From a virus (taxonomy: Duplodnaviria > Caudoviricetes): a stretch of 53,531 nt of DNA. Both the position numbers and the translations under genes were made by a program. The stretch is taken from the IMG/VR virus record IMGVR_UViG_3300025141_000131, positions 1 through 53,531 of that record; one strand, 5' to 3'. The first letter of the stretch is position 1. Each line of letters opens with the position of its first letter. Positions 1 through 19,393 of the stretch are shown in pieces. Below the pieces are notes generated by a model. It searched no databases. It had not been told where the DNA came from and saw only the letters and a list, made by a program, of their open reading frames with translations.

Positions 1-16
1 TATAATTTTCTTTGTG

Positions 17-127
17 TCATTTGTATCTTTTATTATTGAGACGGTCATAATGTTTGTCTAATAAGATCATCGCCACCTCTTCTGAGATCATATTGTCGTT
101 GTATAATTGCCATATTAATTTACTCAT
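17..127 (-). CDS. small hypothetical protein (36 aa, MSKLIWQLYNDNMISEEVAMILLDKHYDRLNNKRYK)
   Basis: Manually translated; below ORF-track cutoff; overlaps the stop of the upstream ORF and has an ATGA overlap with the next start at 20. Confidence 0.55.
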   Translation of the reverse strand: MSKLIWQLYNDNMISEEVAMILLDKHYDRLNNKRYK

Positions 128-293
128 CTTTTTTGTTTTTATGATGGAAATAAGGAGAACCTGTTGATGATAAATCTTGGTCCTCTAAATAATCTCCATT
201 CTGCCACTCACCACATTCTTGGCATTTTGAGTCGCATATTATATACTGGTGGTATACTAATTCCGTACTACCACAAAATTTACATTTATTCAT
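120..293 (-). CDS. small zinc-ribbon protein (57 aa)
   Basis: Manual translation MNKCKFCGS...SKCQECGEWQ: two CxxC motifs; overlaps the ligase stop. Confidence 0.6.
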   Translation of the reverse strand: MNKCKFCGSTELVYHQYIICDSKCQECGEWQNGDYLEDQDLSSTGSPYFHHKNKKDE

Positions 294-1113
294 AATCTCT
301 TAGTCCTTTAAATAGTGGATGTCTATAACTTCCAGCTTTAGTTCGTTCAAAATATGTAAATGTAGCTGTTTTTCCTATATAATGATGTATATTCTTTGTC
401 ATCGCAGCCATATCTTTATAAGTATATCCTTTACCTGGAGGACATCCAAACTTAATACCTTCTTCATCTTCCATATACCATTTACCTAGAGTTCCTTTTC
501 TTTTTCCTTTACCTTCTTCATACCCTATGATTGTAGCTTCAGCGTCGTGGAAATCTTTGAATTTCATTAAATGCCACGATCTTTTTTGAACATATTTCTT
601 ATCTAATCTAAGTATAGATCCTTCATATCCTTTATCTAAAAACTTTTGATGTTGTCTTCTAGCTCTAGTCATATTTTTAACTGTCACGCTATCTACTAGT
701 TTTATATGTTCATTGTAAATTTTCTTTTTAAGTAAGTAACCATATCTTAATCCATAAGATTTAGCTTGAACTACATCATAAACATGATATTGTATAAGAT
801 TTTCAGCTTCTATTCTATCTTGTTTTTTTGGTTTTTGTTTTCTAACTAATGATATAATCTTTTCAAAATTATCTCTTAATTCATGATTGTATAATTCTCC
901 GTCTAATACTGTATTAGGGGATTTACTAAAAAAAGCTTTTAAATCTTTTTCTATGTGTGCTAAATTCTTAAACTTTTTACCAGTTCTAGAATACGCTCCA
1001 TTCTTAGTAAATAAGCATCTAACCCCATCTAGTTTGGGTTGCATATATACTATAGAGTTCCAGTCGATTCTACTTTCATCGACTTTTTGAGCTAACATTG
1101 GGTTTATTTTCAT
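286..1113 (-). CDS. ATP-dependent DNA ligase (minimal phage type)
   Basis: Motif I PKLDGVR, motif III LDGELY, YDV, motif IV EGSILR, KRS..LMKFK, C-terminal OB fold ending RHPLF. Confidence 0.93.
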   Translation of the reverse strand: MKINPMLAQKVDESRIDWNSIVYMQPKLDGVRCLFTKNGAYSRTGKKFKNLAHIEKDLKAFFSKSPNTVLDGELYNHELRDNFEKIISLVRKQKPKKQDRIEAENLIQYHVYDVVQAKSYGLRYGYLLKKKIYNEHIKLVDSVTVKNMTRARRQHQKFLDKGYEGSILRLDKKYVQKRSWHLMKFKDFHDAEATIIGYEEGKGKRKGTLGKWYMEDEEGIKFGCPPGKGYTYKDMAAMTKNIHHYIGKTATFTYFERTKAGSYRHPLFKGLRDYE

Positions 1114-1355
1114 AATCTTTCTAATTGTTTTTGTAATCTATCTATTTTATTTTTAATAATCGCAGCTTTTTCATACTGCTCTGTGTCTTCATAAGTAACC
1201 ATTAGAGTCATTAATCTAGCTAATTCTGCTATTAATAGTTCATAAGGACTTCCCATCTTTTCCATTAATAGATGATCCATCTCTTTAACCTCTAATTGTT
1301 TAATAATTTCTTCAGCTACTAATTGAGCTAAACGTTTTATTTGTTCATCAGTCAT
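1110..1355 (-). CDS. hypothetical protein with UvrB/UvrC-type coiled-coil motif
   Basis: C-terminal EQYEKAAIIKNKI resembles the UVR motif (E.YE.AA..RD.I). Confidence 0.6.
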   Translation of the reverse strand: MTDEQIKRLAQLVAEEIIKQLEVKEMDHLLMEKMGSPYELLIAELARLMTLMVTYEDTEQYEKAAIIKNKIDRLQKQLERL

Positions 1356-1387
1356 ATTATCCGATTTTTGTTGTCGTTTGTTTGTAA
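1354..1387 (-). promoter_or_regulatory. early promoter-like motif, degenerate copy
   Basis: TTACAAACAAACGAC-N9-CGGATAATAT on the minus strand; same 9-nt spacer as four other copies. Confidence 0.55.
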
Positions 1388-1569
1388 TCTATATAAAATC
1401 CTATTGCTACAATAATATTCATGCCTATACTACTTAATATTTCATATAGGTCATGAAAACTATGTATTGATAAGTGGATATGTCCTACTATCCAAAATGG
1501 GATAGCTAGTTGTTGACTGATCCATATTAATAGGAATTTTATAAATTCTGTAATTCTTTTTTTAAACAT
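1357..1569 (-). CDS. small membrane protein
   Basis: Two hydrophobic segments in 70 aa; co-oriented in the operon. Confidence 0.6.
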   Translation of the reverse strand: MFKKRITEFIKFLLIWISQQLAIPFWIVGHIHLSIHSFHDLYEILSSIGMNIIVAIGFYIDYKQTTTKIG

Positions 1570-1618
1570 GTAATTATATAATTATATTCATTATAAATAT
1601 GAAATATTTATCTATGTA

Positions 1619-2086
1619 TTAGATATGGGATTCCCTTGTTTCTCCATTAGCAAAATCAGTATATGGCATAGGATCTTTATCTCTTACATATCTGGATATA
1701 ATTTTAGACGGTGTCTCTACAAATATACACTTGTTAGTATATAAGTTCCAACAAGTTACATGAATTTTCTTTTTATCTCCACTCCATATAGTATAAATAT
1801 ACTCTACATCTATAATATCCGCGTCATTAGGATATAAATAACAACTATCATAATACATATCATGTACTAATTTACTCGCCATTCTAGCTCCATCTGAGTT
1901 GGAATTATTATGTGCCAATAGCCAATTAGCTATTTGTACTCCTTGCCATTCAGGATAACCATCATGGTGCATATACATATTAACATATGCATGTTCAATT
2001 ACTCTATCAGGGTGAACACTGAATCCTTCTGTAAATTCACTTGTGTGATGTCTATCCACCACTCTTATTATATTTCTTGTACTCAT
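1619..2086 (-). CDS. phage hypothetical protein (Y.HHDGYP motif)
   Basis: 155-aa ORF; MSTR start and YMHHDGYP motif of a kind recurrent in phage early proteins; function unknown. Confidence 0.7.
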   Translation of the reverse strand: MSTRNIIRVVDRHHTSEFTEGFSVHPDRVIEHAYVNMYMHHDGYPEWQGVQIANWLLAHNNSNSDGARMASKLVHDMYYDSCYLYPNDADIIDVEYIYTIWSGDKKKIHVTCWNLYTNKCIFVETPSKIISRYVRDKDPMPYTDFANGETRESHI

Positions 2087-2102
2087 AATTTATTTAATTT
2101 AG

Positions 2103-2176
2103 GTGCGGGAGTAGGATTCGAACCTACGACCTCGAGCTTATGAGGCTCGCGAGCTGGCCAACTGCTCTATCCCGCA
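2103..2176 (-). tRNA. tRNA-Met (CAT), initiator-like body
   Basis: TGCGGGA/TCCCGCA acceptor, GAGC/GCTC D stem, CGAGC-CTCATAA-GCTCG anticodon arm, GTAGG-TTCGAAT-CCTAC T arm; CCA not encoded. Confidence 0.92.
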
Positions 2177-2182
2177 ATATTT

Positions 2183-2261
2183 TACCGGCTGTCACTACGA
2201 CTGGCTTTGTACAACTGATACCTCAAGGAAGCCAAGGCGTCGGTTTACTGTTAGGCCGGTA
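2183..2261 (-). ncRNA. unassigned structured RNA (79-nt irregular hairpin)
   Basis: Nested helices TACCGGC/GCCGGTA, CGAC/GTCG, TGGCTT/AAGCCA; GC-rich island between two tRNA-like genes; strand inferred from context. Confidence 0.6.
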
Positions 2262-2266
2262 TTTAG

Positions 2267-2365
2267 TGGACGTGGCAGGAATCGAACCTGCGTTAGTAAG
2301 ATAGCTACTGGATGTCTCATAGAGATCACAGCTTGCCAACATCTTACTCTAACCATTTCACGCCC
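2267..2365 (-). ncRNA. mini-tmRNA: tRNA-like domain only, Ala identity, no mRNA-like domain
   Basis: GGGCGTG/CACGTCC-A acceptor with G3-U70 and A73; unpaired D-loop AAATGGTTAG; helix AGTAAGAT/ATCTTACT; T arm GCAGG-TTCGATT-CCTGC. Confidence 0.75.
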
Positions 2366-2369
2366 ATAT

Positions 2370-2516
2370 GAGACAGTGTTTCGGAACAGGTAGTTTCTAG
2401 AATTATCATTTATACCGTTTTCTGTTTTGACGCACCACGATCGGTTGCTCTAAGGAATACTCCCGCTGAGTCTTACACCCGGTAATCGCCTAACGTGACC
2501 TGTATGCCACTGTCTC
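2370..2516 (-). ncRNA. unassigned multibranched RNA (147 nt)
   Basis: Perfect 9-bp closing helix GAGACAGTG/CACTGTCTC, then ACAGGT/ACCTGT, TACCG/CGGTA and two inner hairpins. Confidence 0.65.
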
Positions 2517-2520
2517 TATT

Positions 2521-2568
2521 GTTGAATATTCCTGAGTTCATAACGAGCCCTCACCAGTTCAATTCAAC
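2521..2568 (-). ncRNA. short hairpin element at the head of the ncRNA array
   Basis: GTTGAAT/ATTCAAC closing helix and TGAG/CTCA inner helix. Confidence 0.4.
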
Positions 2569-2576
2569 TTTATTTT

Positions 2577-3017
2577 TTATTCAGATTCAGGATATTCATA
2601 TCCTTCATCTTTTAATTGATCTTCAATTTCTTCATATTTATCCATATACCATTCTTCATATAAAGCTTCTATAACTTCTTCAAATCCATATTCATCTTGG
2701 CTATAAGAGTCTACATAAACTCTACATCCATCTCTTAAGTAGTCAGCTAGTTTTTCAAACCATTCATTTTCATAATAATATACATCTTCATTAATACATA
2801 CATTACCTTCTTGTTCAGTTGCTATCCATACTTCATAGCCATCTGCGGTAGCGTCAGTATAAAAATAAGCATCACACTTATCCCAATCCTTTACAATTGA
2901 AAAGTTATATATATTTTCTAATAATAGTAATCTATCTTCTTGACTTGTTTCATTTGGCTCAGTCATGCCATCTTTAGCTAATCTCTTTAGAATTAGTTCT
3001 TCAGTAAGTGTTTTCAT
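2577..3017 (-). CDS. highly acidic hypothetical protein
   Basis: 146 aa; about 41 D/E versus about 12 K/R by manual count; Tyr/Trp rich. Confidence 0.75.
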   Translation of the reverse strand: MKTLTEELILKRLAKDGMTEPNETSQEDRLLLLENIYNFSIVKDWDKCDAYFYTDATADGYEVWIATEQEGNVCINEDVYYYENEWFEKLADYLRDGCRVYVDSYSQDEYGFEEVIEALYEEWYMDKYEEIEDQLKDEGYEYPESE

Positions 3018-3211
3018 TTAATTAATTTTAAGTTAAGTTCTTTTGCTACATAATTAACATGTTTAGAAGTAGTAGGACTTGAAGTCATACCATTAACTCT
3101 CCACGCTACTTTATGTAGTTCGTCACCAATTATCTCAGCAACTAGAGTATTATAAGAGTATACATTACTCCCATCTACTCTTAAATTCATTTTATATTTA
3201 TCTAATTTCAT
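3014..3211 (-). CDS. hypothetical protein (YSYNTLVA...SPTTSKHVNY)
   Basis: 65-aa ORF overlapping both neighbours. Confidence 0.7.
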   Translation of the reverse strand: MKLDKYKMNLRVDGSNVYSYNTLVAEIIGDELHKVAWRVNGMTSSPTTSKHVNYVAKELNLKLIK

Positions 3212-3437
3212 CTTTAAATAGTTTTACACCAAATTTCCAGTCAACATAATCCCAAGTTCTCTCATCTATATCTGCCCATAGAATCAAATCTCTCATTTCT
3301 CCTACACTTAGTTCACTGTATAAATATTTATTATCTAAACTTTCATACAGTTCAGTGATACAGTAATCATATTTATCTCTACTCTTTTCAAGAGCTTCAA
3401 CGATTTCTGGTCTTAGTTGTGCTAGTAATGTTGTCAT
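3198..3437 (-). CDS. hypothetical protein
   Basis: 79-aa ORF directly downstream of a promoter motif. Confidence 0.7.
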   Translation of the reverse strand: MTTLLAQLRPEIVEALEKSRDKYDYCITELYESLDNKYLYSELSVGEMRDLILWADIDERTWDYVDWKFGVKLFKDEIR

Positions 3438-3440
3438 TTG

Positions 3441-3480
3441 TTTATTATATTATCCATTAATATTCGTATTTTGTTTGTAA
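3441..3480 (-). promoter_or_regulatory. early promoter-like motif
   Basis: TTACAAACAAAATAC-N9-TGGATAATATAATAAA. Confidence 0.75.
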
Positions 3481-3485
3481 TTTAG

Positions 3486-3570
3486 TAACTAGAAGAGGAA
3501 TCGAACCTCTTTACCCGTCAGTAGTCAGTGGGATAATCAGCATTAAGCCTTCTCCACGCCATACCTAGTT
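3486..3570 (-). ncRNA. D-armless tRNA-like RNA (85 nt)
   Basis: AACTAGG/TCTAGTT-A acceptor, T arm AGAGG-TTCGATT-CCTCT, central GTGG/CCAC helix, no canonical D or anticodon arm. Confidence 0.6.
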
Positions 3571-3576
3571 ATCAGT

Positions 3577-3701
3577 AAAATAATCAGAGTCACACAAGCA
3601 ATTCAGTTACGTGATTTAGGGACCGCGCTTAGCGGTCTCTTTACGGTATTAACCCACCCAAATCCTATTAACCTACTCGTCTTGGTTCTGTCCGTTATTT
3701 T
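3577..3701 (-). ncRNA. unassigned structured RNA with apical three-way junction (~125 nt)
   Basis: Helices CGAGTAG/TTGCTTG, GTTA/TAAC, GATTTGGG/CCTAAATC, hairpins GGT-TAAT-ACC and GACCGC-TAAGC-GCGGTC; most G-U pairs favour the minus strand. Confidence 0.6.
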
Positions 3702-3888
3702 ACAAGTGCCATTCTTTTAAAAGTTTAATGGCATATGATTTAATTTTATCAAAAGTTTTATCATCTAACATTCCATTGTCAAATGTTATAATTCTTTCTA
3801 ATTGTCTTTCTATTTGACCACAAAGCTCTGTTGCTTCTTTGTCAATATAGTCTTCTTTCATTTCCTCGTATTTTTTTCTACTATTCAT
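3700..3888 (-). CDS. hypothetical protein
   Basis: 62-aa ORF in a tightly packed minus-strand operon. Confidence 0.65.
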   Translation of the reverse strand: MNSRKKYEEMKEDYIDKEATELCGQIERQLERIITFDNGMLDDKTFDKIKSYAIKLLKEWHL

Positions 3889-3889
3889 A

Positions 3890-4105
3890 TTATTGTATTT
3901 CTCCTAGTATTATTAAATCTAAATCAGATTTTTTATAACATCTTTTTTGTTGGTAATTAATATATCTTGTTTCTATATCTCTTGCTTTTAACAATTCTTC
4001 ATTCCACATTCTTTGATCTATTTTATAAAATGTATAAAATACACCTATAAAAAAGCTCATTCCTGTTAAAATAATGAGATAAAATACTCTTTCTATTTTT
4101 CTCAT
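3890..4105 (-). CDS. small membrane-anchored protein
   Basis: N-terminal hydrophobic helix; resembles 4722..4889. Confidence 0.65.
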   Translation of the reverse strand: MRKIERVFYLIILTGMSFFIGVFYTFYKIDQRMWNEELLKARDIETRYINYQQKRCYKKSDLDLIILGEIQ

Positions 4106-4296
4106 AAAAATTTACTCCAATGATCTTGATCTATCACCCATGTTAAACCTTTATAGTTAAACCATTGATAAATACCTTCTTTGTCTTCTTTATATTTAAA
4201 TCCAAATCTTGGAGGTAAACTACCAACATCATAACCCTTATATTTAACATCGTTTAATTTAAGTGTTGTTTTGCTTGTTAATTTAATTCTATTCAT
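4102..4296 (-). CDS. hypothetical protein
   Basis: 64-aa ORF with a 4-nt overlap to the next gene. Confidence 0.65.
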   Translation of the reverse strand: MNRIKLTSKTTLKLNDVKYKGYDVGSLPPRFGFKYKEDKEGIYQWFNYKGLTWVIDQDHWSKFL

Positions 4297-4303
4297 AATT
4301 TAT

Positions 4304-4711
4304 TTAATTTAAGTAATTTCTTTTGTAGAATTCTAGCATATAATTCATTCTTGCTAGTCCACTATATATTTTTTCTCTTGCTATCATTACAGTTTTATGT
4401 GTATATAACTTATCTCCATCTAACATAGTCCACCTAACATTCTGTTTATATTGTTTGTTAAGTTGATAATTAGATGAGCAAGAATTTTGATTTCTTACAT
4501 AACCTGTCTTAAAACAAGCTAATCTTAATCTTTTGTCAGAAGATATTAACTTACCATTATGTCTATAATGCCAAGCAGGTACAGGAAATTCAAATTCTCT
4601 TGTTCCATTTTTTGCTTGTCTTTGTGTAGTTACTTCGCGAATATTATATTCTACGAGTAATCTTCTTGCGTAAGCGTCTTCTAGCGCTTGTCTTTCTTGT
4701 CTCCAATTCAT
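4304..4711 (-). CDS. basic hypothetical protein
   Basis: 135-aa ORF with an AT-rich leader. Confidence 0.7.
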   Translation of the reverse strand: MNWRQERQALEDAYARRLLVEYNIREVTTQRQAKNGTREFEFPVPAWHYRHNGKLISSDKRLRLACFKTGYVRNQNSCSSNYQLNKQYKQNVRWTMLDGDKLYTHKTVMIAREKIYSGLARMNYMLEFYKRNYLN

Positions 4712-4721
4712 AATTTAGTTA

Positions 4722-4889
4722 TTATCCTAAGATAAATGTTTCAACATCTTGCCAGTGATACCAATCACTATCAAACCTGTTTTCCCATCTTTCTTTAATT
4801 TCTTGTGTCATTGTTTCTCTACCAGCTATAAAACTTGCTGAAGATAACAATATAATAAGAAATATTGATTTAATTTGATTTTTTTTCAT
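4722..4889 (-). CDS. small membrane-anchored protein (55 aa)
   Basis: Manual translation MKKNQIKSIFLIILLSSASFIAG...WYHWQDVETFILG; directly follows a promoter motif. Confidence 0.65.
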   Translation of the reverse strand: MKKNQIKSIFLIILLSSASFIAGRETMTQEIKERWENRFDSDWYHWQDVETFILG

Positions 4890-4895
4890 TTTGTT

Positions 4896-4935
4896 TTTAT
4901 TATATTATCCAAAAATAATTGTATTTTGTTTGTAA
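4896..4935 (-). promoter_or_regulatory. early promoter-like motif
   Basis: TTACAAACAAAATAC-N9-TGGATAATATAATAAA; both boxes identical to 3441-3480. Confidence 0.75.
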
Positions 4936-4939
4936 TTCT

Positions 4940-5200
4940 CTATCTTTTATCTGGTTTTCTAAAGTCTTTAAGAAAGAATTTAAACTTTCTAAAGATCTTC
5001 GTTCCCCATATGTTCTCATCTACACAAACATAAGTATCTAGTTGTGGATTTGTAGCGAGAAATTGTTGAAGATTATCATACTTCTTTACTTTATCATGAT
5101 GGATTACTCCCCACTGATCTTTAATTTCACATTGTCTAAAGCATACTTCATTAGTCTCTTGTATTCCTAAGAGTGCTAAAGTTATTAACATTTTATTCAT
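4940..5200 (-). CDS. hypothetical protein
   Basis: 86-aa ORF, overlap-coupled. Confidence 0.6.
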   Translation of the reverse strand: MNKMLITLALLGIQETNEVCFRQCEIKDQWGVIHHDKVKKYDNLQQFLATNPQLDTYVCVDENIWGTKIFRKFKFFLKDFRKPDKR

Positions 5201-5406
5201 AATTTAAGGTTATATATTTGTTTATTTAAATTTTCTATTACTCTTTCCATTATATAACTGTGAGCGTCATTATAAAGCGCTTCATTATTATACTCAATAT
5301 TTAAATCACTATTAGATAAGTGGAAATCACTTACTTTATATAATTTTTCTAACATTTCTTCTGATATATTATTCACTAATCTATCTAATTCTTTAGTTTT
5401 ACTCAT
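5197..5406 (-). CDS. hypothetical protein
   Basis: 69-aa ORF. Confidence 0.6.
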   Translation of the reverse strand: MSKTKELDRLVNNISEEMLEKLYKVSDFHLSNSDLNIEYNNEALYNDAHSYIMERVIENLNKQIYNLKL

Positions 5407-5417
5407 TTTATTTATTT

Positions 5418-5627
5418 TTATTTAACCATATTTAGTGGATTTTCAGCATATTTCGCTATTCCTTGTCGCCAAGTCCACTCTCTTTTGCGATATTCATAGT
5501 CAGTACACCATTTTTTCCAACCTCTAATGGAGTCGTTTTCACCATATTTAGCTTCAAATTCTTGTACTTGTTTTAGTTTTGCAGCGATTTTATTCGCATC
5601 ATAATCTTTAAATTCCATCATCTTCAT
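5418..5627 (-). CDS. hypothetical protein
   Basis: 69-aa Trp-rich ORF. Confidence 0.65.
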   Translation of the reverse strand: MKMMEFKDYDANKIAAKLKQVQEFEAKYGENDSIRGWKKWCTDYEYRKREWTWRQGIAKYAENPLNMVK

Positions 5628-5735
5628 ATTTTATTGGGTTATTAAATTCTTGTTTAAGAGTTGAGTACAATAATTCATCAAAGTAATCATCTCTATCTAC
5701 AAATCTCTGTTGTATTTTACTATAATATTTCTTCA

Positions 5736-5903
5736 TTATTCAAATTTATCTATTAAGTCAATACATTCATCTATTTCTTCATCACTTAAAGTATATACAT
5801 ATTCATATAAATATTCATCAAGTGACATTTTTTCCTCTTTAAGTTGATATTTCTCATCTAATTTCTCCATGAGTTCTATCGCTTGTTCGTGTAAGTTTTT
5901 CAT
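5736..5903 (-). CDS. small acidic protein (55 aa)
   Basis: Manual translation MKNLHEQAIELMEKLDE...ECIDLIDKFE. Confidence 0.55.
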   Translation of the reverse strand: MKNLHEQAIELMEKLDEKYQLKEEKMSLDEYLYEYVYTLSDEEIDECIDLIDKFE

Positions 5904-5907
5904 ATTA

Positions 5908-6042
5908 TTATTCTTTTATTTCCCAATCTACATCTTCAAGATCATCAAAGTGACTTCCATCATAGAATATATCTTCAAGAAGATTATTTATTTCATCAAA
6001 GGTTAGATTAGATTTTAGTGTAATTGTTACTTTTTTATACAT
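5908..6042 (-). CDS. small acidic protein (44 aa)
   Basis: Manual translation MYKKVTITLKSNLTFDEINNLLEDIFYDGSHFDDLEDVDWEIKE. Confidence 0.5.
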   Translation of the reverse strand: MYKKVTITLKSNLTFDEINNLLEDIFYDGSHFDDLEDVDWEIKE

Positions 6043-6148
6043 TATCTATTATTTTATTTATTTCATCTTGTAATTCATCACCTTCAAATTCATATTGTAA
6101 ATGTGAATATTCTTGTATTATTTGATTATAGATTTCTTCTCTATTCAT
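6035..6148 (-). CDS. small acidic protein (37 aa)
   Basis: Manual translation MNREEIYNQIIQEYSHLQYEFEGDELQDEINKIIDNV. Confidence 0.5.
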   Translation of the reverse strand: MNREEIYNQIIQEYSHLQYEFEGDELQDEINKIIDNV

Positions 6149-6168
6149 AATTTATTATTTAATATTAG

Positions 6169-6212
6169 TTAATATGAAGAGAATCGAACTCTTCCTCGTT
6201 CCAAAATATTAA
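6169..6212 (-). ncRNA. 44-nt tRNA minihelix-like element
   Basis: TTAATAT/ATATTAA stem stacked on GAAGAG-TTCGATT-CTCTTC T arm, joined by the 11-nt linker TTTGGAACGAG. Confidence 0.55.
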
Positions 6213-6226
6213 TTTAGAGTAGTATG

Positions 6227-6457
6227 TTACTGTACTTCACACACTTCTCTCACTACAACAGGTACATTAGTTGAACTAGTATATGAGTTGTATTTTTTGA
6301 AACAATTAAGAGAATTTAATTTATCTTTCATAATTTCATACACTTCATCGTGATTATAAGATACTTTCTTACCACTTTTGAATTCAACATTTATAGTTGT
6401 GTTTTTACCGATTAGTGATTTTCTTATCACAAATCTTTTTAAATTTAAGTTTGACAT
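6227..6457 (-). CDS. hypothetical early protein (KRFVIRKSLIG)
   Basis: 76-aa ORF downstream of a promoter motif. Confidence 0.7.
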   Translation of the reverse strand: MSNLNLKRFVIRKSLIGKNTTINVEFKSGKKVSYNHDEVYEIMKDKLNSLNCFKKYNSYTSSTNVPVVVREVCEVQ

Positions 6458-6518
6458 AGTTTTTAATTTTAATTTATTATTTATTATTTATATTTAAGAA
6501 ATTGATTTTCAAGATCTT

Positions 6519-6558
6519 ATATTATTATTATCCAATTATAAACATAATTTGTCTGTAA
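6519..6558 (-). promoter_or_regulatory. early promoter-like motif
   Basis: TTACAGACAAATTAT-N9-TGGATAATAATAATAT. Confidence 0.7.
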
Positions 6559-6587
6559 TGTTCATAAGTGTTAATTTGTTTATTATA

Positions 6588-6648
6588 TGACAAAGTGTCA
6601 TAAGTATTTGACAAAGTGTCATAGTGTCATACTAGTGACAACTTGTCA
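6588..6648. repeat. three TGACA-N3-TGTCA palindromes plus a half site (operator/iteron-like)
   Basis: TGACAAAGTGTCA at 6588 and 6609, TGACAACTTGTCA at 6636, half site AGTGTCA near 6623. Confidence 0.75.
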
Positions 6649-6796
6649 TATTATAATTTATTAGTATAATCATAATTATTTTGATTTATAAAAAATCTAT
6701 ATTTATAGTTATGATTATATAATTTTTCATATAATTTATTATTAAACATGAATAGATTATTTTCTATTGATATTTCTTTTGATAATTTAGTTTGAA

Positions 6797-6985
6797 TCAT
6801 TTTTTATATATTTTATATTTTAAGTAATGTTTATTTAATAATTTAGAAATTGAATCAATTTGTTTAGTAGTAATTTTATGAGTTGATATTAATTTATTAT
6901 TTAATATTATAAAATTGTAATGAAATTGATTTTGAATTAATTTTGATATTAATTGAGTTTGATATTTATTAGTTTGAATAATCAT
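6797..6985 (-). CDS. hypothetical protein, first gene of the early arm
   Basis: 62-aa ORF 6 nt downstream of a promoter motif; extremely AT-rich. Confidence 0.5.
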   Translation of the reverse strand: MIIQTNKYQTQLISKLIQNQFHYNFIILNNKLISTHKITTKQIDSISKLLNKHYLKYKIYKK

Positions 6986-6991
6986 ACATTG

Positions 6992-7031
6992 TTTATTATA
7001 TTATCCACTTCGGAAGATATTTTGTCTGTGA
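6992..7031 (-). promoter_or_regulatory. early promoter-like motif
   Basis: TCACAGACAAAATAT-N9-TGGATAATATAATAAA. Confidence 0.72.
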
Positions 7032-7299
7032 AATGCTTGATAGGTTTTACCAGAAAAAGGCCTAAAAAAGCCCTAAAAAGGGTAGGGCCAGCCAAAAAAA
7101 AGGGGTTTTACAGAGTAAAAAGAGTTAGAGAGAGGAGGGGGGACGCTATACCTCTCTATTCGTAATATTTTTTAGAAAAGCTCTCTCCCTTAATGATAAT
7201 ATACTACGTATATTATCTAGATAGGAGTAATATATATACTATATACCCTATATATACCTTATAAGGGGGAAAAATAATATGTAAAAACGAGAAATAACC
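7032..7299. other. non-coding divergence region; possible genome terminus, packaging site or origin
   Basis: Strand switch; A- and G-tracts, purine run 7110-7144, TATA-rich repeats; function is inference only. Confidence 0.4.
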
Positions 7300-7312
7300 T
7301 GTAAGTATATAA
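7300..7312 (+). promoter_or_regulatory. putative late promoter motif TGTAAGTATATAA
   Basis: Variants precede genes at 17219, 24465, 34091 and 41074. Confidence 0.5.
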
Positions 7313-11203: not shown

Positions 11204-14200
11204 ATGGCTATAAATTTTTTAAATCACGGAAGTTTTCCAGATGATGCAGAATTAATTTTTGGAGATGGCTCAGATTTAAAAATATATCATTCAAGTGGAA
11301 ATTCTAGTATTAAAAATATTACTGGGCAACTTAGATTTGGTGGTAATGATATAAGACTACAAACTCAGAATTTTAGTGAAGATTATATACTTTGTGAGGA
11401 TGGTGGGGCAGTTACTTTATATTATGATGATTCTGCAAAACTAGCAACTGATAGTGCGGGAGTAACAGTAACAGGCATAGTAACTGCTACTGGTGGAACT
11501 TCTACAGAGTGGAATGAGGCTTACGATAACATGATAACTGCATTTAGTGATTCAGGTTCATCAACTATTACTTTAACGCTTACACAACAAGATGGTGGTA
11601 CTTTAACTACTTCATTTAGTAATCCACAAGGAACAGTAACAAGTGTTACTGCAGGAACAGGTTTAGATGGTGGTACAATAACTGGATCAGGTACAATAGA
11701 TTTAGCTGACACAGCAGTAAGTGCAGGTTCTTATACTAACGCTTCAATAACAGTAGACGCCCAAGGTAGACTTACCGCAGCATCTACTGGAAGTGATGCC
11801 CAAGGAGTTACTTCAATAACATTCACATCGGATTCAGGAAGTACATCTGCTATAACAAGTACTGGAACAATCGACATAGCTGGTGGAACAAACGTAACAA
11901 CATCCGCAACTGGATCAACTGTTACTATTAACTCTACTGATCAATATACAGGTACAGTTACTTCAGTTTCGTCTAGTACAACTGATCAATTGACAGTAGC
12001 TAATTCAACAACAACTCCAGCATTAACTATTGTAACAGGTGCTGTAACAAATGGCGGAACTGCATTAGCAACTGGTGATCAAATATATGACGCCACAACC
12101 ACAAGATTAAGTGGTTATTTACCTCTTACAGCTGGCTCAGGCGTTCCTTTAACAGGTAGCTTATATATTGAAGCAGCAAGTACGCCTCAACTAAATATAA
12201 AAGATACTACAAATAATTTAGTAGGTAGATTTAGAGTTGGAAATACTTCAATGTACATAGACGCTGATGCAGGAGAAGGAGTAGCAAGTACATCAATGCA
12301 ACTACAAATAGATGCTGAAACAAAATTAAACCTTACAGAAAGTATTAGTAGATTCCAAGGTCAAAATGTATCTATAAGAAGAGAGGATACAGTACCAGTT
12401 CTTAATTTTGAAAGAAATGATGCTACTATAGTTTCTGGTAATGATATAGGACAACTGATATTTAAAGGTGCAGATCCAAGTAGTTATAATGAAGGAGCAA
12501 GGATGTCAGTAGAAGCTGATGGCACGTGGGATACAGATACTTTTCCAACTCGAATAAAATTTGAAGTAAAAGCAACTGATACATTACAAACTGCACTAAA
12601 AATAAACTCTGATGCAGAAATAAATTTTGGTCAGTATGGTAGTGGAACTTTTACAGGAACTTCAGCTTATTATATAATTGCAAATTCATCAGGTAATCTT
12701 ATAGAAAAAACTCCAGCCCAAGTAAGAACAGATATTGGAGCTGGTACAGGTGATGGTACAGTAACAAGCATCACTGCGGGAACAGGTTTGGACGGAGGAA
12801 CTATAACAGGTTCTGGTACGATAGATTTAGCAGATACAGCAGTTACCGCTGGAAGTTATACCTCTGCAGCAATAACTGTAGATGCACAAGGAAGAATAAC
12901 AGCGGCGTCAAGTGGAAGTCCAGGGGACATCACAGGGGTAACAGCAGGTAATTATTTAAATGGTGGTGGTACTTCAGGTACAGTAACTGTTAATCATGAT
13001 ACAACATCAAGATCAGATACTTCTTCATCAGCTTCACCAGGATCAGCTGGAACATTTACATGTGTTGATTCGGTAACAACTGGAACTTATGGACATATTA
13101 CTGCTTTAAATCTTAAGACAGTAACAATGCCTACTTCAAGTAGTACTACAGGTACTGTAACCAGTGTTGCAACAGGTGCTGGATTAAGCGGAGGTACAAT
13201 AACTACTACAGGTACACTAATACTAGATGTAGAAAGCTCAACTACCACCACAACATCAAGTAATGCGGATTGGTTCTCTATTGCCAACACAGGAGGTACT
13301 ACATATAAAATAGCCCCGGGAGATATTGATCTTTCTACAATGAATAACGATTCTGGCTGGACAACTAATTCAGGAACAGTAACTAGTGTAGCAACCAGTT
13401 CTCCAATTACAGGTGGTACTATAACAGGTAGTGGGACAATAGGAATTAGTAATGCAACAGGTACTACAGTGGGTGCAGCCGCAATTCAAGCGGGAACAGG
13501 AATTAGTGTTAGTGATAGTAGTGGTGTTTATACAATAACAAATAGTTCTCCTTCTTCAGGAGGTACAGTTACTTCAGTAGCTGTAACAGTAGGAACAGGA
13601 TTAGATGTATCAGGTTCTCCTATAACAGGCAGTGGTACAATTGATATTGATTTAGATTTAACTGAACTTACATTAGGCGCTGGTATAGATTCAACAGCAA
13701 CTGGTCTTAGTTTAGATTTATCTGAATTTACCGACATGACAGCTACTATGACAGGTAGTGACGAATTTATTGTATTAGATAGTTCAGCTGAAAGAAGAAA
13801 AGCAGCAAGTGAAATTGGATTAAGTATATTTAGTAATGATTCAGGATTTACTACAAATACTGGCACAGTAACTTCAGTAGCGGTAACTGCTGGAAGTGGG
13901 ATTAGCATATCAGGTTCTCCAATTACAGGTAGTGGTACTATAACTGTTACAAATACTCAAACTTCTGATACAGGAGTTCCTGCGATTTTATCTGATGGTG
14001 CAAGTCCTACATTAAATACAGGAATAAGCGCAGCAGAAGTAAGATCTTTAATTGGAGCGGGTACTTCTTCAACTACAGGTACCGTAACAAGTATAACTGT
14101 AGGAGCAGGGGATGGTTTAACTGGCGGTGGAACAATTACAACATCTGGAACAGTTACTTTAGATGTTGGAGCTGGTACAGGAATTGATGTTGGAGCTGAT

Positions 14201-16477
14201 AGTATAGCTATTGATTTAAGTGAATTATCTACAACAACTGATTCAGGTAATGCAGATTTCTTTGCTATCACAAACTCATCTAGTTCACAATATAAAATAG
14301 CCCCAGGAGATATAGATTTATCCACCATGAATAATGATTCTGGCTGGACTTCAAATTCCGGGGATATTACAAACGTAGGTGTTACTTCACCGATAACAGG
14401 TGGAGGAAGTTCAGGTTCTGTTACAATAGCCCATGCAGCTTCAGGGGTAAGTGCAGGGAGTTATACACACGCTTCTATTACAGTAGATGCAACAGGTCAC
14501 GTTACTGCAGCATCTAGTGGAAGTCCTGGAGATATTACAGGGGTAGAAGCAGGAGTAGGATTGTCCGGAGGTGGAACATCAGGAGATGTAACTCTTACAT
14601 TAGATGTTGAAGATTCAACAACTACAACTACATCAAGTAATGCGGATTGGTTTTCTATAGCTAATACCGCAGGAACAACTTATAAGATAGCACCAGGAGA
14701 CATAGATTTATCTACTATGAATAATGATAGCGGATGGACTTCAAACAGTGGGGATATTACAAATGTAAGTACAACTTCACCAATAGGTGGCGGAGGATCA
14801 TCCGGATCTGTAACTATTACACACGATAGTCAAACTGACACAGAAACAACGTCATCTGAAACATTAACATCAGCTGATACATTTACGGCTTATACAAGTG
14901 TTACTGTAAATGCTACAGGTCATGTTACAGGACATAATTTAAAAACATATACACTACCTACCTCAGTAAGTAGTAGTGGTGTAACATCCGTAGCGACTAG
15001 TGCTGGTACAATTAATGGCTTAGGAGTAACAGGCGGAACTATTACAGGAACTGGTACTATAGCATTAACTGGAACACTTGCAATTAATAATAGTGATTGG
15101 TCAGGCACTGACTTAGCTGTTGCTAATGGTGGTACAGGTAGAAGTACTCTTTCATCTGGACAAGTTTTATTAGGAAACGGTACTTCAGGTATAAACTCAA
15201 GAGCAATAGGTATAGCAGATGATAATATTGTAGAAATAGATCATGCTTCGGTAGCAGATAATGATTATGCTAAGTTTACAGCAAATGGTTTAGAAGGTAG
15301 AAGTTATGCACAAGTTTTATCAGATATTGGTGCAGGTACAGGAGATGGAACAGTTACTTCAGTAGGAATTACTGCTGGTACAGGAATAAGTGTATCTGGT
15401 TCTCCAGTTACAGGATCAGGAAGTATAACCGTAACAAATTCAGCACCATTTACATGGGATGGCGGTGGAGCTACAAATAAAATTGCAATTTGGAGTGATG
15501 CAGATACTCTATCATATGATACTGATCTTAGTTGGACACCAGGTTCAAACATGCTTAGTGCTGACGCGCTTTCATGTGATGATTTATATCTTACTGATAC
15601 CGCAGCTAGTGGCGCTCTTAGTGGTTATGTTGGTATTGAAGCTACTCAATTAGTTTCAAGAACAGCGGCTCAAGTAAGAAGTGATATTGGTGCGGGCACA
15701 GGAAGCGGTAGTGTTACTTCAATAGGTATTACAGCGGGAACTGCAATATCTGTATCTGGTTCTCCAGTTACAAGTTCAGGAAGTATAACAGTTAATAATA
15801 CAGGGGTTACAAGTATAGTAGCTGGAAGTAATATATCTGTAAGTGGGGCAACTGGCGCAGTTACTGTAGCTACTACTGGTTTAGATAATTATGATTATTG
15901 GACGGCTTCCGATGGACTGTCTACAGTAAATGTAACAAGTGGATCCACATTAACATTTGAAGGGGGTTCTAATATAACTACAACCAAAGGTTCAGGAAAA
16001 ATAACTTTTGCAGCAACTGGATTATTACCACTTGCTGGTGGTACAATGACTGGAGATATAGTTTTAGCAGATGATGGTGGTATTCAACTTGATACTTCAT
16101 TATCATCAGGTGTTTCTGGTACAATAATTAAAATTGGATCTGGAACAACGGTCGCAGGAAAATATTATACTTTAATATCATCTGGTGGTGGTACATGGGA
16201 AGTAGCTGAATCAGAAACAGAAACTTATTCTACTGGTATGTTAGGATTTGCGATAGGAACAAGTCCAACCTCAAATGGTATTTTAACTAATGGAATTTTA
16301 TATGATAGTAGTCATGGTTTTACAATTGGAGCACCTTTATATATATCAGAAACAGGAGGTACTGTAACTAACACCGCACCGACTAGTAGTGAAGCAGTAG
16401 TTAGGGTAGTTGGATATGCAATAGATACAGATGAAATTTATTTCTGTCCAGATAATACATGGGTGTTATTAGATTAA
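11204..16477 (+). CDS. long fibre protein (1757 aa)
   Basis: Many GTVTSV/GDIT.V repeats, GSYT.A.ITVDA.GR motifs, LPLAGGTMTG; C-terminal GAPLYIS...VRVVGYA domain. Confidence 0.85.
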   Translation: MAINFLNHGSFPDDAELIFGDGSDLKIYHSSGNSSIKNITGQLRFGGNDIRLQTQNFSEDYILCEDGGAVTLYYDDSAKLATDSAGVTVTGIVTATGGTSTEWNEAYDNMITAFSDSGSSTITLTLTQQDGGTLTTSFSNPQGTVTSVTAGTGLDGGTITGSGTIDLADTAVSAGSYTNASITVDAQGRLTAASTGSDAQGVTSITFTSDSGSTSAITSTGTIDIAGGTNVTTSATGSTVTINSTDQYTGTVTSVSSSTTDQLTVANSTTTPALTIVTGAVTNGGTALATGDQIYDATTTRLSGYLPLTAGSGVPLTGSLYIEAASTPQLNIKDTTNNLVGRFRVGNTSMYIDADAGEGVASTSMQLQIDAETKLNLTESISRFQGQNVSIRREDTVPVLNFERNDATIVSGNDIGQLIFKGADPSSYNEGARMSVEADGTWDTDTFPTRIKFEVKATDTLQTALKINSDAEINFGQYGSGTFTGTSAYYIIANSSGNLIEKTPAQVRTDIGAGTGDGTVTSITAGTGLDGGTITGSGTIDLADTAVTAGSYTSAAITVDAQGRITAASSGSPGDITGVTAGNYLNGGGTSGTVTVNHDTTSRSDTSSSASPGSAGTFTCVDSVTTGTYGHITALNLKTVTMPTSSSTTGTVTSVATGAGLSGGTITTTGTLILDVESSTTTTTSSNADWFSIANTGGTTYKIAPGDIDLSTMNNDSGWTTNSGTVTSVATSSPITGGTITGSGTIGISNATGTTVGAAAIQAGTGISVSDSSGVYTITNSSPSSGGTVTSVAVTVGTGLDVSGSPITGSGTIDIDLDLTELTLGAGIDSTATGLSLDLSEFTDMTATMTGSDEFIVLDSSAERRKAASEIGLSIFSNDSGFTTNTGTVTSVAVTAGSGISISGSPITGSGTITVTNTQTSDTGVPAILSDGASPTLNTGISAAEVRSLIGAGTSSTTGTVTSITVGAGDGLTGGGTITTSGTVTLDVGAGTGIDVGADSIAIDLSELSTTTDSGNADFFAITNSSSSQYKIAPGDIDLSTMNNDSGWTSNSGDITNVGVTSPITGGGSSGSVTIAHAASGVSAGSYTHASITVDATGHVTAASSGSPGDITGVEAGVGLSGGGTSGDVTLTLDVEDSTTTTTSSNADWFSIANTAGTTYKIAPGDIDLSTMNNDSGWTSNSGDITNVSTTSPIGGGGSSGSVTITHDSQTDTETTSSETLTSADTFTAYTSVTVNATGHVTGHNLKTYTLPTSVSSSGVTSVATSAGTINGLGVTGGTITGTGTIALTGTLAINNSDWSGTDLAVANGGTGRSTLSSGQVLLGNGTSGINSRAIGIADDNIVEIDHASVADNDYAKFTANGLEGRSYAQVLSDIGAGTGDGTVTSVGITAGTGISVSGSPVTGSGSITVTNSAPFTWDGGGATNKIAIWSDADTLSYDTDLSWTPGSNMLSADALSCDDLYLTDTAASGALSGYVGIEATQLVSRTAAQVRSDIGAGTGSGSVTSIGITAGTAISVSGSPVTSSGSITVNNTGVTSIVAGSNISVSGATGAVTVATTGLDNYDYWTASDGLSTVNVTSGSTLTFEGGSNITTTKGSGKITFAATGLLPLAGGTMTGDIVLADDGGIQLDTSLSSGVSGTIIKIGSGTTVAGKYYTLISSGGGTWEVAESETETYSTGMLGFAIGTSPTSNGILTNGILYDSSHGFTIGAPLYISETGGTVTNTAPTSSEAVVRVVGYAIDTDEIYFCPDNTWVLLD

Positions 16478-17595: not shown

Positions 17596-19149
17596 ATGTC
17601 GAACGCGATAGTTAAAAACCTTAACTTTGGTGACAAAGCTAGGGAAGAAGTATTTAAAGGAATAACAAAACTCACAGATGCTGTTAGCTCCACTTTAGGA
17701 GCTAGCGGTAAATGTGTGATACTAGAAGATGGTGCGGGTAATCCTGTTATAACAAAAGACGGTGTTACTGTAGCTGATTCAGTTACTTTGTTAGATCCTG
17801 TAGAAAATATGGGTGCAACTCTTTTAAAAGAAGCTGCACGTAAAACAGTAAGAGAAGCTGGAGATGGTACAACAACTGCTACCATTTTAGCACACTCTAT
17901 ATTAGAAGAAGCATATAAAATTTCTAATAAAACAAACTCAAGAGAATTAAAAGACGGTATTAATTCTGCAGTTAATAAAGTTGTAAAATATTTAGAATCT
18001 ATAGCAAAACCTGTAGAAGGAGATATGATAGATCAAATAGCAACTATATCAACAAATAACGATCCTGTATTAGGGAAAATTATAGCAGATGCTTTTAGAG
18101 CTGTAGATTATACCGGAGTGGTAATGATGGAAACTTCACCTAACGGTCAAACAGAAGTTGAAATAGTAGATGGGGTTCAATATGATAAAGGACTTACAAA
18201 CTCACATTTCATTACTAATAAACAATCAAAAACAGCGGAATTAGAAAACCCATTAGTACTGTTAATTGAATCTCCAATAGATACAATTAGACAAATTCAA
18301 ACAGTGCTAGAGTATGTAATAAAAAACAATAAACCTTTGCTTATTATAGGCGATTTAGAACAAGGTGTTTTATCAGCTCTAGCTATGAATAAAATTAAGG
18401 GTAACATAAAGGTTAACGTTATTAATGCTCCAACATATGGTATTAATAAAAAACAAATCTTAGATGATTTATCTTTATTAACAGATGCTACTATAATAAA
18501 CGAAGATTTAGGTGATGACTTAGATTTAATTAGAGTAGAACATTTAGGTACGTGTTTAAAAAGCATAACCACACATGAAGATACTATTATACAAATAAAT
18601 GAATCTTCTGGTGAAATACAAGAGATTATTCAAGATATAAAAGATAAATTACTTCAAGAAAATCCTAGTCATGAAGTAATTAAGCTAGAAAAAAGACTAG
18701 CTATGTTAGCTGCTAGAATAGCAATAGTTAAAGTTGGTGCGAATTCAGACATTGAATTAAAAGAAAAACAAGATAGGGTTGAAGATGCTATCTGTGCCAC
18801 TAAAGCAGCTATTAAAGAAGGTATTGTTCCAGGTGGTGGAATAGCATTGCTTAACGCCGCGATGAATACAAAAGAAAAAAATGAAGGAGAAAAAGTTTTA
18901 ACAAAAGCTGTATTATCACCCTTTAAAACAATATTATTAAATGCTGGTTTAGAACCTGAACTTCCGAAAAAAGAAGGTTACGGCATTAATGTGGTTACGG
19001 GAAATATGGTAAATATGATTGATAATGGTATTATAGATCCATTATTAGTTACAAAAAGCGCATTACAAAATGCAGCTTCAGTAGCAACTACTATTTTATC
19101 TACAGATTGTGTAATTAATAATATAAGAATTAATGAAAGCAATAGGTAG
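17596..19149 (+). CDS. groEL: phage-encoded chaperonin GroEL
   Basis: ITKDGVTVA, GDGTTT, DRVEDA, GIVPGGG, GIIDP motifs; no GGM tail. Confidence 0.97.
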   Translation: MSNAIVKNLNFGDKAREEVFKGITKLTDAVSSTLGASGKCVILEDGAGNPVITKDGVTVADSVTLLDPVENMGATLLKEAARKTVREAGDGTTTATILAHSILEEAYKISNKTNSRELKDGINSAVNKVVKYLESIAKPVEGDMIDQIATISTNNDPVLGKIIADAFRAVDYTGVVMMETSPNGQTEVEIVDGVQYDKGLTNSHFITNKQSKTAELENPLVLLIESPIDTIRQIQTVLEYVIKNNKPLLIIGDLEQGVLSALAMNKIKGNIKVNVINAPTYGINKKQILDDLSLLTDATIINEDLGDDLDLIRVEHLGTCLKSITTHEDTIIQINESSGEIQEIIQDIKDKLLQENPSHEVIKLEKRLAMLAARIAIVKVGANSDIELKEKQDRVEDAICATKAAIKEGIVPGGGIALLNAAMNTKEKNEGEKVLTKAVLSPFKTILLNAGLEPELPKKEGYGINVVTGNMVNMIDNGIIDPLLVTKSALQNAASVATTILSTDCVINNIRINESNR

Positions 19150-19393
19150 AAATTTAATAATAGAAAAAGTAAAAGAAGGAACCACTAAAACAGAAGGTGG
19201 TTTACTTTTAGCAGAGAACCAAAGAGAAGATATTAGATATATTGAAGCTAATGTAATATCTGTTGGTCCTGAAGTAGTAGGTGTTAAAACAAATGATAGA
19301 ATATTCTTTGATAAACATGCTGGACATAAGATTGAAATAGAAAAGAAATCTTATCATATAATTAAGGCCCAAGATATTGTAGTAGTATTATGA
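19133..19393 (+). CDS. groES: co-chaperonin GroES
   Basis: TKTEGGLLL mobile loop and VISVG motif; overlaps the groEL stop. Confidence 0.9.
   Translation: MKAIGRNLIIEKVKEGTTKTEGGLLLAENQREDIRYIEANVISVGPEVVGVKTNDRIFFDKHAGHKIEIEKKSYHIIKAQDIVVVL

Follow-up and report, generated by a model that had tools for sequence, protein, structure and literature searches.

The window analyzed here, a 53.5-kb virus record from IMG/VR (IMGVR_UViG_3300025141_000131; 53,531 nucleotides, GC content about 28%), contains an array of five small GC-rich units, U1 to U5, packed between two open reading frames (ORFs). The minus strand carries the genes in positions 1-7300, and the array is therefore to be read on that strand, in the 5' to 3' order U1 (2568-2521), U2 (2516-2370), U3 (2365-2267), U4 (2261-2183) and U5 (2176-2103). 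An earlier note, made from the letters alone, had described five end-paired, GC-rich units separated by 4-6 nt of A/T-rich spacer, and in the minus-strand reading its boundaries hold exactly: the spacers measure 4, 4, 5 and 6 nt, all are A/T-rich, and GC content is 0.40-0.53 over 2001-2600 compared with 0.24-0.33 on either side, the array itself being a GC island of 45-52%. The alternation of unknown and tRNA-like RNAs that it had noticed is likewise borne out by ARAGORN and Rfam, with U3 and U5 being tRNA-like and U1, U2 and U4 not. From 5' to 3', the array and its flanking genes are as follows.

2577..3017, minus strand: upstream ORF of 146 amino acids (aa), assigned to no family and ending with its stop 8 nt ahead of U1; 13 viral loci have homologues
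2521..2568, minus strand: U1, a 48-nt stand-alone hairpin closed by a 7-bp stem and having a conserved core of 21 nt (sequence, comparative)
2370..2516, minus strand: U2, a 147-nt pseudoknotted RNA (comparative, model R2)
2264..2365, minus strand, trailer included: U3, a tRNA-like domain (TLD) without an mRNA part (RF00023, 37.7 bits; fold z -3.1; model R3, 74.2 bits)
2183..2261, minus strand: U4, a 79-nt conserved RNA (comparative, model R1)
2102..2176, minus strand: U5, a tRNA with anticodon CAU, Met by anticodon and possibly Ile2 if modified (ARAGORN, Rfam)
1619..2086, minus strand: downstream ORF of 155 aa, no family; its ATG lies 16 nt past the tRNA discriminator; homologues in 58 viral loci

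Single-sequence folding yields significant z scores for U3 (-3.1) and U5 (-2.4) and non-significant ones for U1 (-1.7), U4 (-1.1) and U2 (-1.0). As thermodynamics alone does not establish U1, U2 and U4, the case for these units rests on related sequences and covariation. Compensatory changes in related viral contigs identify every one of U1 to U4 as a conserved family, and U1, U2 and U4 are each kept in 28-34 viral contigs with their helices covarying. Conserved pairing in related phages, whose absence the earlier note had named as part of what would count against its proposal, is found in the form of these covarying helices. Mapping the non-coding modules of relatives by their GC islands was also tried and proved too noisy to be of use.

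Helices P1 (closing), P2 and P3 make up U4 together with a conserved internal loop, an internal hairpin and a self-complementary 8-mer. The central 19-mer of U4 was found in 28 viral contigs, and in nine loci the unit is 92.6-98.7% identical where the adjacent protein is only 55-71% identical. Within an alignment of 23 unique sequences (A2), six pairs in P1 and P2 are changed on both sides and the internal loops are near-invariant; the invariant helices overlap the search pattern and are thus uninformative. The 8-mer, which lies in the terminal region, is self-complementary in all three sequence variants and could form either a tiny hairpin or a dimerization site. Model R1 scores U4 at 108.6 bits and finds a single copy in the window.

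The 5' 19-mer of U2 is present in 34 viral contigs, all of one design: a long closing helix P1 (a 9-bp closing stem in the window) and P2, then two conserved strands, the second of them A-rich, with a variable insert between them. The insert spans about 10-130 nt across the family and in the window corresponds to a cargo hairpin at approximately 2430-2489, while a short segment inside P2 pairs with the bases just 3' of P2 to form an H-type pseudoknot. Five P1 pairs are changed on both sides in an alignment of 28 sequences (A3), in which one P2 pair alternates between A:U (15 sequences) and U:A (13) and one pseudoknot pair occurs as UA (16), CG (7) and GC (1); the score of the pseudoknot is lowered by misplaced gaps there in four or five rows of the window type. 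Sliding the 3' partners by 1-3 columns reduces pairing from 91% to 32-51%. Model R2 scores U2 of the window at 107.5 bits and matches 13 of 68 related loci. The 21-mer core of U1, in turn, is found in 29 viral contigs comprising 24 unique contexts, in which the outer stems vary in sequence and still pair. At gathering thresholds, Rfam returned nothing for U1, U2 or U4 over the window (the phage RNA families GOLLD and ROOL included), and at E values up to 10 over 1950-2750 there was no whole-unit match to any of the three, with weak sub-threshold matches only at their edges.

U3 has the features of the TLD of transfer-messenger RNA (tmRNA), namely a 7-bp acceptor stem with a G3:U70 wobble (2359-2365 paired with 2268-2274), a discriminator A (A73) at 2267, a canonical, tRNA-type T arm (2275-2291) and no anticodon arm. 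A CUA trailer (2264-2266) follows the discriminator, and a short, GG-containing D-loop analogue is followed by a cargo hairpin (approximately 2295-2348) that replaces the anticodon arm, or helix 2. Rfam aligns 2264-2365 with positions 1-374 of the tmRNA family RF00023, both ends being matched and the 282-nt middle of the model being reduced to 24 nt. ARAGORN calls neither a tRNA nor a tmRNA at U3; an mRNA-like domain is lacking, and neither the window nor any of 71 related loci yields a tmRNA or tag call. The tmRNA pseudoknots PK1-PK4 are likewise absent from U3, whose insert folds as a simple hairpin (the only pseudoknot of the array is that of U2), and a by-eye reading of U2, U3 and U4 found no tag reading frame with a conserved stop. 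Given that the messenger part and the pseudoknots are missing and that its score falls short of the Rfam gathering threshold (37.7 versus 47 bits), U3 is not a tmRNA. It is instead a phage-encoded TLD with no tag-coding part, which is what defines the TLD-only phage tmRNA of the DS6A type.

The two flanking proteins had led to 71 loci, and BLAST found the 3' third of U3 in 39 of them. For a selection-free test of the TLD, we searched with its 3' 22-mer alone (T loop, 3' T stem and 3' acceptor strand), which occurs in 95 IMG/VR stretches, and examined 80 of these 95 loci. A complementary 5' strand lies no more than 255 nt upstream in 81/81 of the instances picked in this way, where the chance of finding a given 7-mer in that upstream stretch is about 1.6%. 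These instances represent 74 unique TLD sequences of 47-185 nt, with a hypervariable cargo helix of about 20-125 nt and, in most copies as in most other T-arm elements listed, a CUA trailer after the discriminator. In an alignment of 50 TLDs (A1), G3:U70 is retained in 49, pair 4:69 occurs as five pair types and pair 6:67 as two, and three T-stem pairs are changed on both sides. The 100% pairing of A1 arises by construction because a filter required it, which is not so for the compensatory changes or the retained wobble.

Cargo-less "minihelix" elements of 46-47 nt, each consisting of an acceptor stem, a common 15-nt linker and a T arm, were also observed, with several acceptors that include the alanine type. 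They are located in the following related loci and look like cargo-less versions of the TLD.

L018, 2682-2727: minihelix element
L026, 2290-2335: minihelix element
L027, 1959-2004: minihelix element
L047, 2749-2794: minihelix element
L059, 2493-2538: minihelix element
L113: minihelix element

Such a domain could be derived from tmRNA or be a relative of tRNA-Ala. The U3 score of 37.7 bits cannot by itself separate the two, since scores on RF00023 go as high as 39.8 bits for sequences of tRNA size in Bacteroidia genomes. More broadly, RF00023 gives 24-40 bits to many tRNA-sized bacterial sequences of 76-91 nt, a calibration from which it follows that sub-threshold tmRNA matches of tRNA size need further evidence before being read as TLDs. 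Two relatives of about 80 nt each, L003 and L021, exceed the RF00023 gathering threshold of 47 with 64.9 and 64.7 bits, and some TLD copies have a D-loop-analogue motif, GGUUUUGAC or GGUAUUGAC, which many of the listed Bacteroidia tmRNAs also have behind their acceptor. An encoded CCA is missing from 26 of 29 sampled Bacteroidia tmRNA genes and the trailer begins with C in all 29, which can be compared with the phage CUA. Taken as sequence evidence, these features suggest that U3 probably works like, and derives from, the TLD of tmRNA. A separate observation comes from a 7.4-kb viral contig of 56% GC (L151), where positions 199-283 hold the same alanine-type acceptor and T arm on an 85-nt tRNA-Arg(CCG) called by ARAGORN, an element that Rfam scores as a tRNA at 47.9 bits. 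The acceptor/T-arm module is therefore also found on a cloverleaf body outside the A/T-rich phage group.

On comparison across contigs, the same RNA modules recur, reshuffled and nested inside one another, in dozens of related phages. This modularity, which does not appear in the earlier note, is our main new point, as the units are portable and are also found nested within tRNA-like scaffolds. U4 stands alone in 20 of its 24 unique contexts, and in the remaining four it lies inside a TLD, where it replaces the cargo hairpin. The U1 core is carried as cargo by TLDs (L276, L285), by an A/U-rich tRNA-like element of the type termed X below (L291/L024) and by a further scaffold (L274, L280), and is nested within another cargo in L287 and L301. 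When standing alone, both U1 and U4 are closed by a covarying stem of their own. Cargo is also common to different scaffolds, with 5 of 103 unique TLD cargos matching 6 of 25 unique U2 cargos (E<1e-3). Unit order and presence differ among relatives: in one close relative (L123) U4 comes immediately after U2 without a TLD, and the units of L017 are separated by kilobases.

One tentative reading of this exchange, which we put forward with considerable doubt, is a plug-and-play RNA display in which tRNA-like scaffolds would stabilize, process and perhaps deliver interchangeable cargo aptamers that are reshuffled by recombination between phages. The scaffolds would be the alanine-chargeable TLD, the A/U-rich tRNA-like element and the pseudoknotted U2; delivery to ribosomes would proceed via AlaRS, EF-Tu and SmpB; and the cargo, U1 and U4 included, would bind or titrate host factors. 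If this were true, the cargo set would be the RNA counterpart of protein anti-defense islands.

U5, the last unit of the array, is an ordinary tRNA that scores 66 bits on RF00005 against a gathering threshold of 29 and is called tRNA-Met (anticodon CAT) by ARAGORN, which also calls tRNA-Met(CAU) in 36 of 71 related loci. Inspection by eye found a U1:A72 pair and an anticodon stem without three consecutive G:C pairs, and for these reasons U5 is not an obvious initiator. One candidate identity, given that the phage is A/T-rich, is a tRNA-Ile2 with a lysidine modification, decoding AUA.

The earlier note also proposed tRNA punctuation, that is, a polycistronic precursor from which cleavage at the tRNA-like units releases the unknown RNAs. 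The anatomy of the array fits this proposal in its short spacers, its lack of internal promoters and terminators and the adjacency of U2 and U4 to tRNA-like elements, and the proposal falls short at the ends of U1. A scan for sigma-70-type promoters and intrinsic terminators gave no signal above shuffle level in the array, and the sole conserved promoter-like motif is found not within it but upstream, at 3444-3469, where it likely marks the start of the array's transcription unit. Almost all T-arm motifs (129 of 131) are in gene sense. Of 31 U2 contexts, 22 have a tRNA-like element 1-7 nt downstream of U2, and 12 of 20 stand-alone U4 contexts have a T-arm element on one or both sides at a distance of up to 12 nt; these adjacency counts come from a strict T-arm finder that misses imperfect acceptors. 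Parts of the stretch are present in 20 public runs, six of which are RNA on record, all as assembled contigs; in the four of six that were examined, the contigs represent relatives 90-99% alike that cover 2044-2561 and 3228-3526 at depths of 2-7, and such contigs cannot show ends, strand or transcription, nor do uncovered flanks carry any weight. One of them has the arrangement in which U2 is directly followed by U4.

We consider that the array probably belongs to the early region of an uncultured marine podophage and consists of five separate, co-transcribed small-RNA genes. Host RNase P would cut on the 5' side of U3 and U5, and RNase Z and the CCA-adding enzyme would act after their discriminators. 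These cuts would free the 3' end of U2 and both ends of U4, yielding stable RNAs that are each protected by a closing helix, and would split the flanking mRNAs. The TLD, bearing G3:U70 and A73, would be alanylated by AlaRS, engage SmpB and EF-Tu, and damp or redirect host trans-translation, as has been reported for the DS6A TLD. The cargo hairpins, together with U2 and U4, may be ligand- or RNA-binding modules that are stabilized and processed by the tRNA-like scaffolds. As a whole, a punctuated array of modular small RNAs with a TLD acting on trans-translation is the explanation that we favor on balance. The role of a "host-takeover module", which the earlier note had assigned to the array, remains conjecture, and its only mechanistic lead comes from the resemblance of U3 to the DS6A TLD-only tmRNA.

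Several results weigh against this explanation. By the strict finder, a flanking T-arm element is missing from 9 of the 31 contexts of U2 and from 8 of the 20 in which U4 stands alone, and U1 adjoins one in only 2 of 22 stand-alone contexts, so punctuation does not account for the ends of U1. U2 precedes tRNA-Met as well as TLDs and is therefore not TLD-specific. Scans of window proteins with Pfam (44 proteins) and PHROGs (15) revealed none of an RNA-processing, SmpB-like or integrase kind, and the processing of the array is deduced from its anatomy. The sub-threshold RF00023 score of U3 and the comparable scores of tRNA-sized sequences count on the same side, as does the filtering of A1 members for acceptor and T-stem pairing, a bias of which the covariation and the 22-mer test are free. 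Finally, IMG/VR contigs from similar samples are not independent lineages.

The tight packing of the units and the lack of internal promoter or terminator signals would equally suit a single "ornate" RNA or ribonucleoprotein of about 470 nt that remains uncut and has embedded tRNA-like domains, similar to GOLLD and ROOL, which are themselves phage RNAs found near tRNA islands. The 8-mer of U4, self-complementary in three variants, would suit intermolecular pairing in such a particle. We nevertheless consider a composite RNA unlikely, as no GOLLD or ROOL match was obtained from Rfam even at E values up to 10, unit order and presence vary freely (L123, L017) and every unit has its own covarying closing stem. 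A two-piece rescue RNA is another alternative, in which U2 would supply the missing pseudoknot or mRNA-like half of a split tmRNA to the adjacent TLD. U2 does have a covarying H-type pseudoknot and an A-rich single strand, and lies directly 5' of the TLD in the window and in many relatives. However, ARAGORN detects no tmRNA or tag in the window or in the 71 loci, the aligned U2 sequences have by eye no frame with a conserved stop, U2 precedes tRNA-Met and not a TLD in several contigs (L105, L109, L110, L112), and it has no significant similarity to 30 Bacteroidia tmRNA loci. A split tmRNA is for these reasons very unlikely.

As ORF 1619-2086 begins 16 nt past the tRNA, the array could act in cis as its 5' UTR or processing signal; or, given that tmRNA genes are described as common integration sites in the available part of PMC11915505, the array could be a recombination or attachment site in which the 3' half of the TLD serves as an attP for a host ssrA gene. 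In many relatives, however, the units lie away from this ORF, both acceptor strands are present and not just a 3' fragment, the acceptor sequence is unlike those of all 29 sampled Bacteroidia tmRNAs, and no integrase is found among the 44 Pfam- and 15 PHROGs-scanned proteins. Compensatory base changes in the TLD, U4 and U2 argue for selection at the RNA level, and we regard a cis-acting or DNA element as highly improbable. Least credible, to the point of near dismissal, is the idea that the units are decaying, functionless pseudogenes left by a phage tRNA island. Related cultured phages do have ordinary tRNAs in the same region, such as the annotated tRNA-Ala of Flavobacterium phage elemoA, and tRNA-like elements are degenerate by definition. 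Yet U4 is far more conserved than the neighboring protein (92.6-98.7% versus 55-71% identity), G3:U70 is kept while neighboring pairs covary, and 74 unique TLD variants share one architecture.

Searches beyond these viral contigs were largely negative. BLASTN of the 1.5-kb region, U3 and U4 against 50,697 GenBank phage records gave wide matches for tRNA-Met only, with one 29-nt T-arm match for U3 and none for U4. The exact 19-mer of U4 had four matches in 185,579 species genomes (596 Gb), compared with 4.3 expected by chance, and their flanks are unrelated. Models R1 (U4) and R2 (U2) each matched 0 of 141 sampled Bacteroidia genomes, a sample that contains no positive control, and the U2 model had no match in the two nearest GenBank phages. 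Of those two phages, one has a TLD-model match at a tRNA-Ala that is annotated as such, and the other at a tRNA-like element that lacks annotation. The nearest GenBank relative, MW202828.1 (L272), has at 518-740 an unannotated gap containing two tRNA-like elements followed by a terminator-like hairpin; the elements bear inserts in place of the anticodon arm, and the TLD model gives 27.2 bits on the first. When U1, U2 and U4 were compared with 30 Bacteroidia tmRNA loci, only the T loop was alike, and there was no similarity to the tmRNA body.

Two other roles found no support in the samples searched. A copy or mimic of a host RNA was dropped for U2 and U4, as no homologue was found in the Bacteroidia genomes sampled. 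For U1, the idea of a CRISPR-repeat mimic acting as an RNA anti-CRISPR was pursued in 401 sampled Bacteroidia genomes, where the core, allowing up to three mismatches, gave nine single matches compared with five for a reversed control and no repeat arrays.

Several known systems resemble the array in part, with the T4 small RNAs and the t-elements of plant mitochondria closest in architecture. In phage T4, the RNAs RNAC and RNAD, once called species 1 and 2, lie in the tRNA region and are matured together with the tRNAs. The available part of one source refers to them as "RNAs of yet unknown functions" (PMC9697503). The likeness, by description and not by sequence, is that of stable non-tRNA small RNAs from a tRNA-encoding phage. 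The present array differs in that it belongs to a different phage group and includes a TLD, and in its nesting of modules, which is not described for T4.

The closest precedent for an individual member is the TLD-only tmRNA (ssrA) of mycobacteriophage DS6A (tmRNA Website; Hudson, Lau & Williams 2014), for which the available portions of the sources report inhibition of the endogenous tmRNA, perhaps through titration of SmpB (PMC4131195, PMC11915505). U3 is alike by that description in its G3:U70, A73 and T arm and in lacking an anticodon and an mRNA-like domain. As far as those portions go, the only case listed is that of DS6A, an actinophage, while the family described here numbers at least 74 unique variants from marine viral contigs. 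Unlike DS6A as described there, the U3 family has hypervariable cargo that is exchangeable with other scaffolds and sits in arrays with other RNAs.

For the proposed processing, parallels are provided by the t-elements of plant mitochondria, whose tRNA-like structures guide the cutting of transcripts by RNase P and RNase Z according to the accessible part of PMC1920247, and by the TMERs of gammaherpesviruses, partially described as tRNA-like units linked to pre-miRNAs. In these systems, as far as described there, non-canonical tRNA-like folds set the ends of neighboring RNAs, as proposed here for U2 and U4. Those examples come from an organelle and an animal virus, whereas the present element is from a bacteriophage and also has cargo and alanine identity marks, which suggests that the TLD has a function of its own beyond that of a cut site.

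GOLLD and ROOL are depicted, in the available part of a preprint, as self-assembling phage RNAs near or including tRNAs, one of them downstream of a Met-tRNA in a marine sample (bioRxiv 10.1101/2024.12.08.627333). To the extent covered there, they share with the array a position near phage tRNA islands, sometimes with tRNAs in a linker, and a variable region beside a conserved one. In contrast, the present units are small (48-147 nt), separately closed, shuffled between genomes and without an Rfam match. Ponchon and Dardel reportedly engineered a "tRNA scaffold" for the expression of recombinant RNAs, in which a foreign RNA takes the place of the anticodon arm to gain stability and correct processing. 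That scaffold was made for laboratory use, and the placement of U4 and U1 within TLDs is a candidate natural counterpart, and this is the closest functional analogy.

A literature search found no description of cargo-bearing TLD-only RNAs, or of U1, U2 or U4, in marine or flavobacterial phages, within an incomplete coverage. A tRNA-punctuated phage small-RNA array is already known in kind, and what appears to be previously undescribed is the TLD-only family, three RNA families with no Rfam entry and the exchange of cargo between scaffolds.

Phage tRNA islands are usually read as a supply of codons, and here most of the island is not tRNA. The TLD family has lost the messenger part and keeps the alanine identity pair, a form that has so far been listed for one mycobacteriophage. 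Should the TLD be charged and bind SmpB, these marine phages, a widespread group, would tamper with ribosome rescue by RNA alone. The same hairpins exchanged among three or more scaffolds would represent a natural version of the laboratory tRNA-scaffold trick. U1, U2 and U4, together with at least four further cargo types, offer small, conserved and probably ligand-binding RNAs for structural and binding studies, and the array provides a testable case of tRNA-punctuated small-RNA maturation in a bacterial virus.

Proteins identified in the window by Pfam and PHROGs include DNA ligase, GroEL/GroES, large terminase, portal and large virion proteins. The best match of the terminase is an uncultured podovirus (62.7% identity), and the nearest cultured phages by terminase infect Flavobacterium, Cellulophaga, Tenacibaculum and Maribacter, all at less than 60% identity (44.5% in all Flavobacterium rows among the matches listed). 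Because the cultured phages closest by terminase infect Flavobacteriia, the host is likely from that class. The plus strand carries the phage's own GroEL/GroES pair (17596-19393) and several very large ORFs (11204-16477, 36148-40641 and 45347-53530) of 1757, 1497 and at least 2728 aa, whose family matches are weak or virion-structural.

Upstream of the array, the minus strand contains further elements.

3444..3469, minus strand: promoter-like motif (ATACGA, 6-12 nt, GATAATAWAAT); one match in the window, 0/100 shuffles
3486..3700, minus strand: island "X", an A/U-rich tRNA-like scaffold (3486-3570) with a cargo hairpin, and an upstream conserved scaffold with its own cargo
6169..6211, minus strand: very A/T-rich, minihelix-like element of 43 nt, in the gap before the ORF 5736-5903 region

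The tRNA-like element of island X has an acceptor formed by 3564-3570 with 3487-3493, a T arm at 3494-3510 and a discriminator at 3486, followed by CUA. The island is GC-rich and was missed by ARAGORN and by the Rfam gathering thresholds, with a weak tRNA-Sec match of 15.4 bits and an R3 score of 19.6 bits; pieces of it are conserved in L023, L024, L026 and L027. The promoter-like motif is present in 70 of 233 loci, usually after a tRNA-like element and before an ORF. The element at 6169-6211 has a T arm, an acceptor with six of seven pairs, a discriminator A and a CUA trailer. Operator-like TGACA-N3-4-TGTCA inverted repeats were also observed at approximately 6585-6650 (minus strand) of the window and, among relatives, at approximately 3443-3462 of L024 and 2293-2312 of L027, where RNA modules immediately precede them and the promoter-like motif follows.

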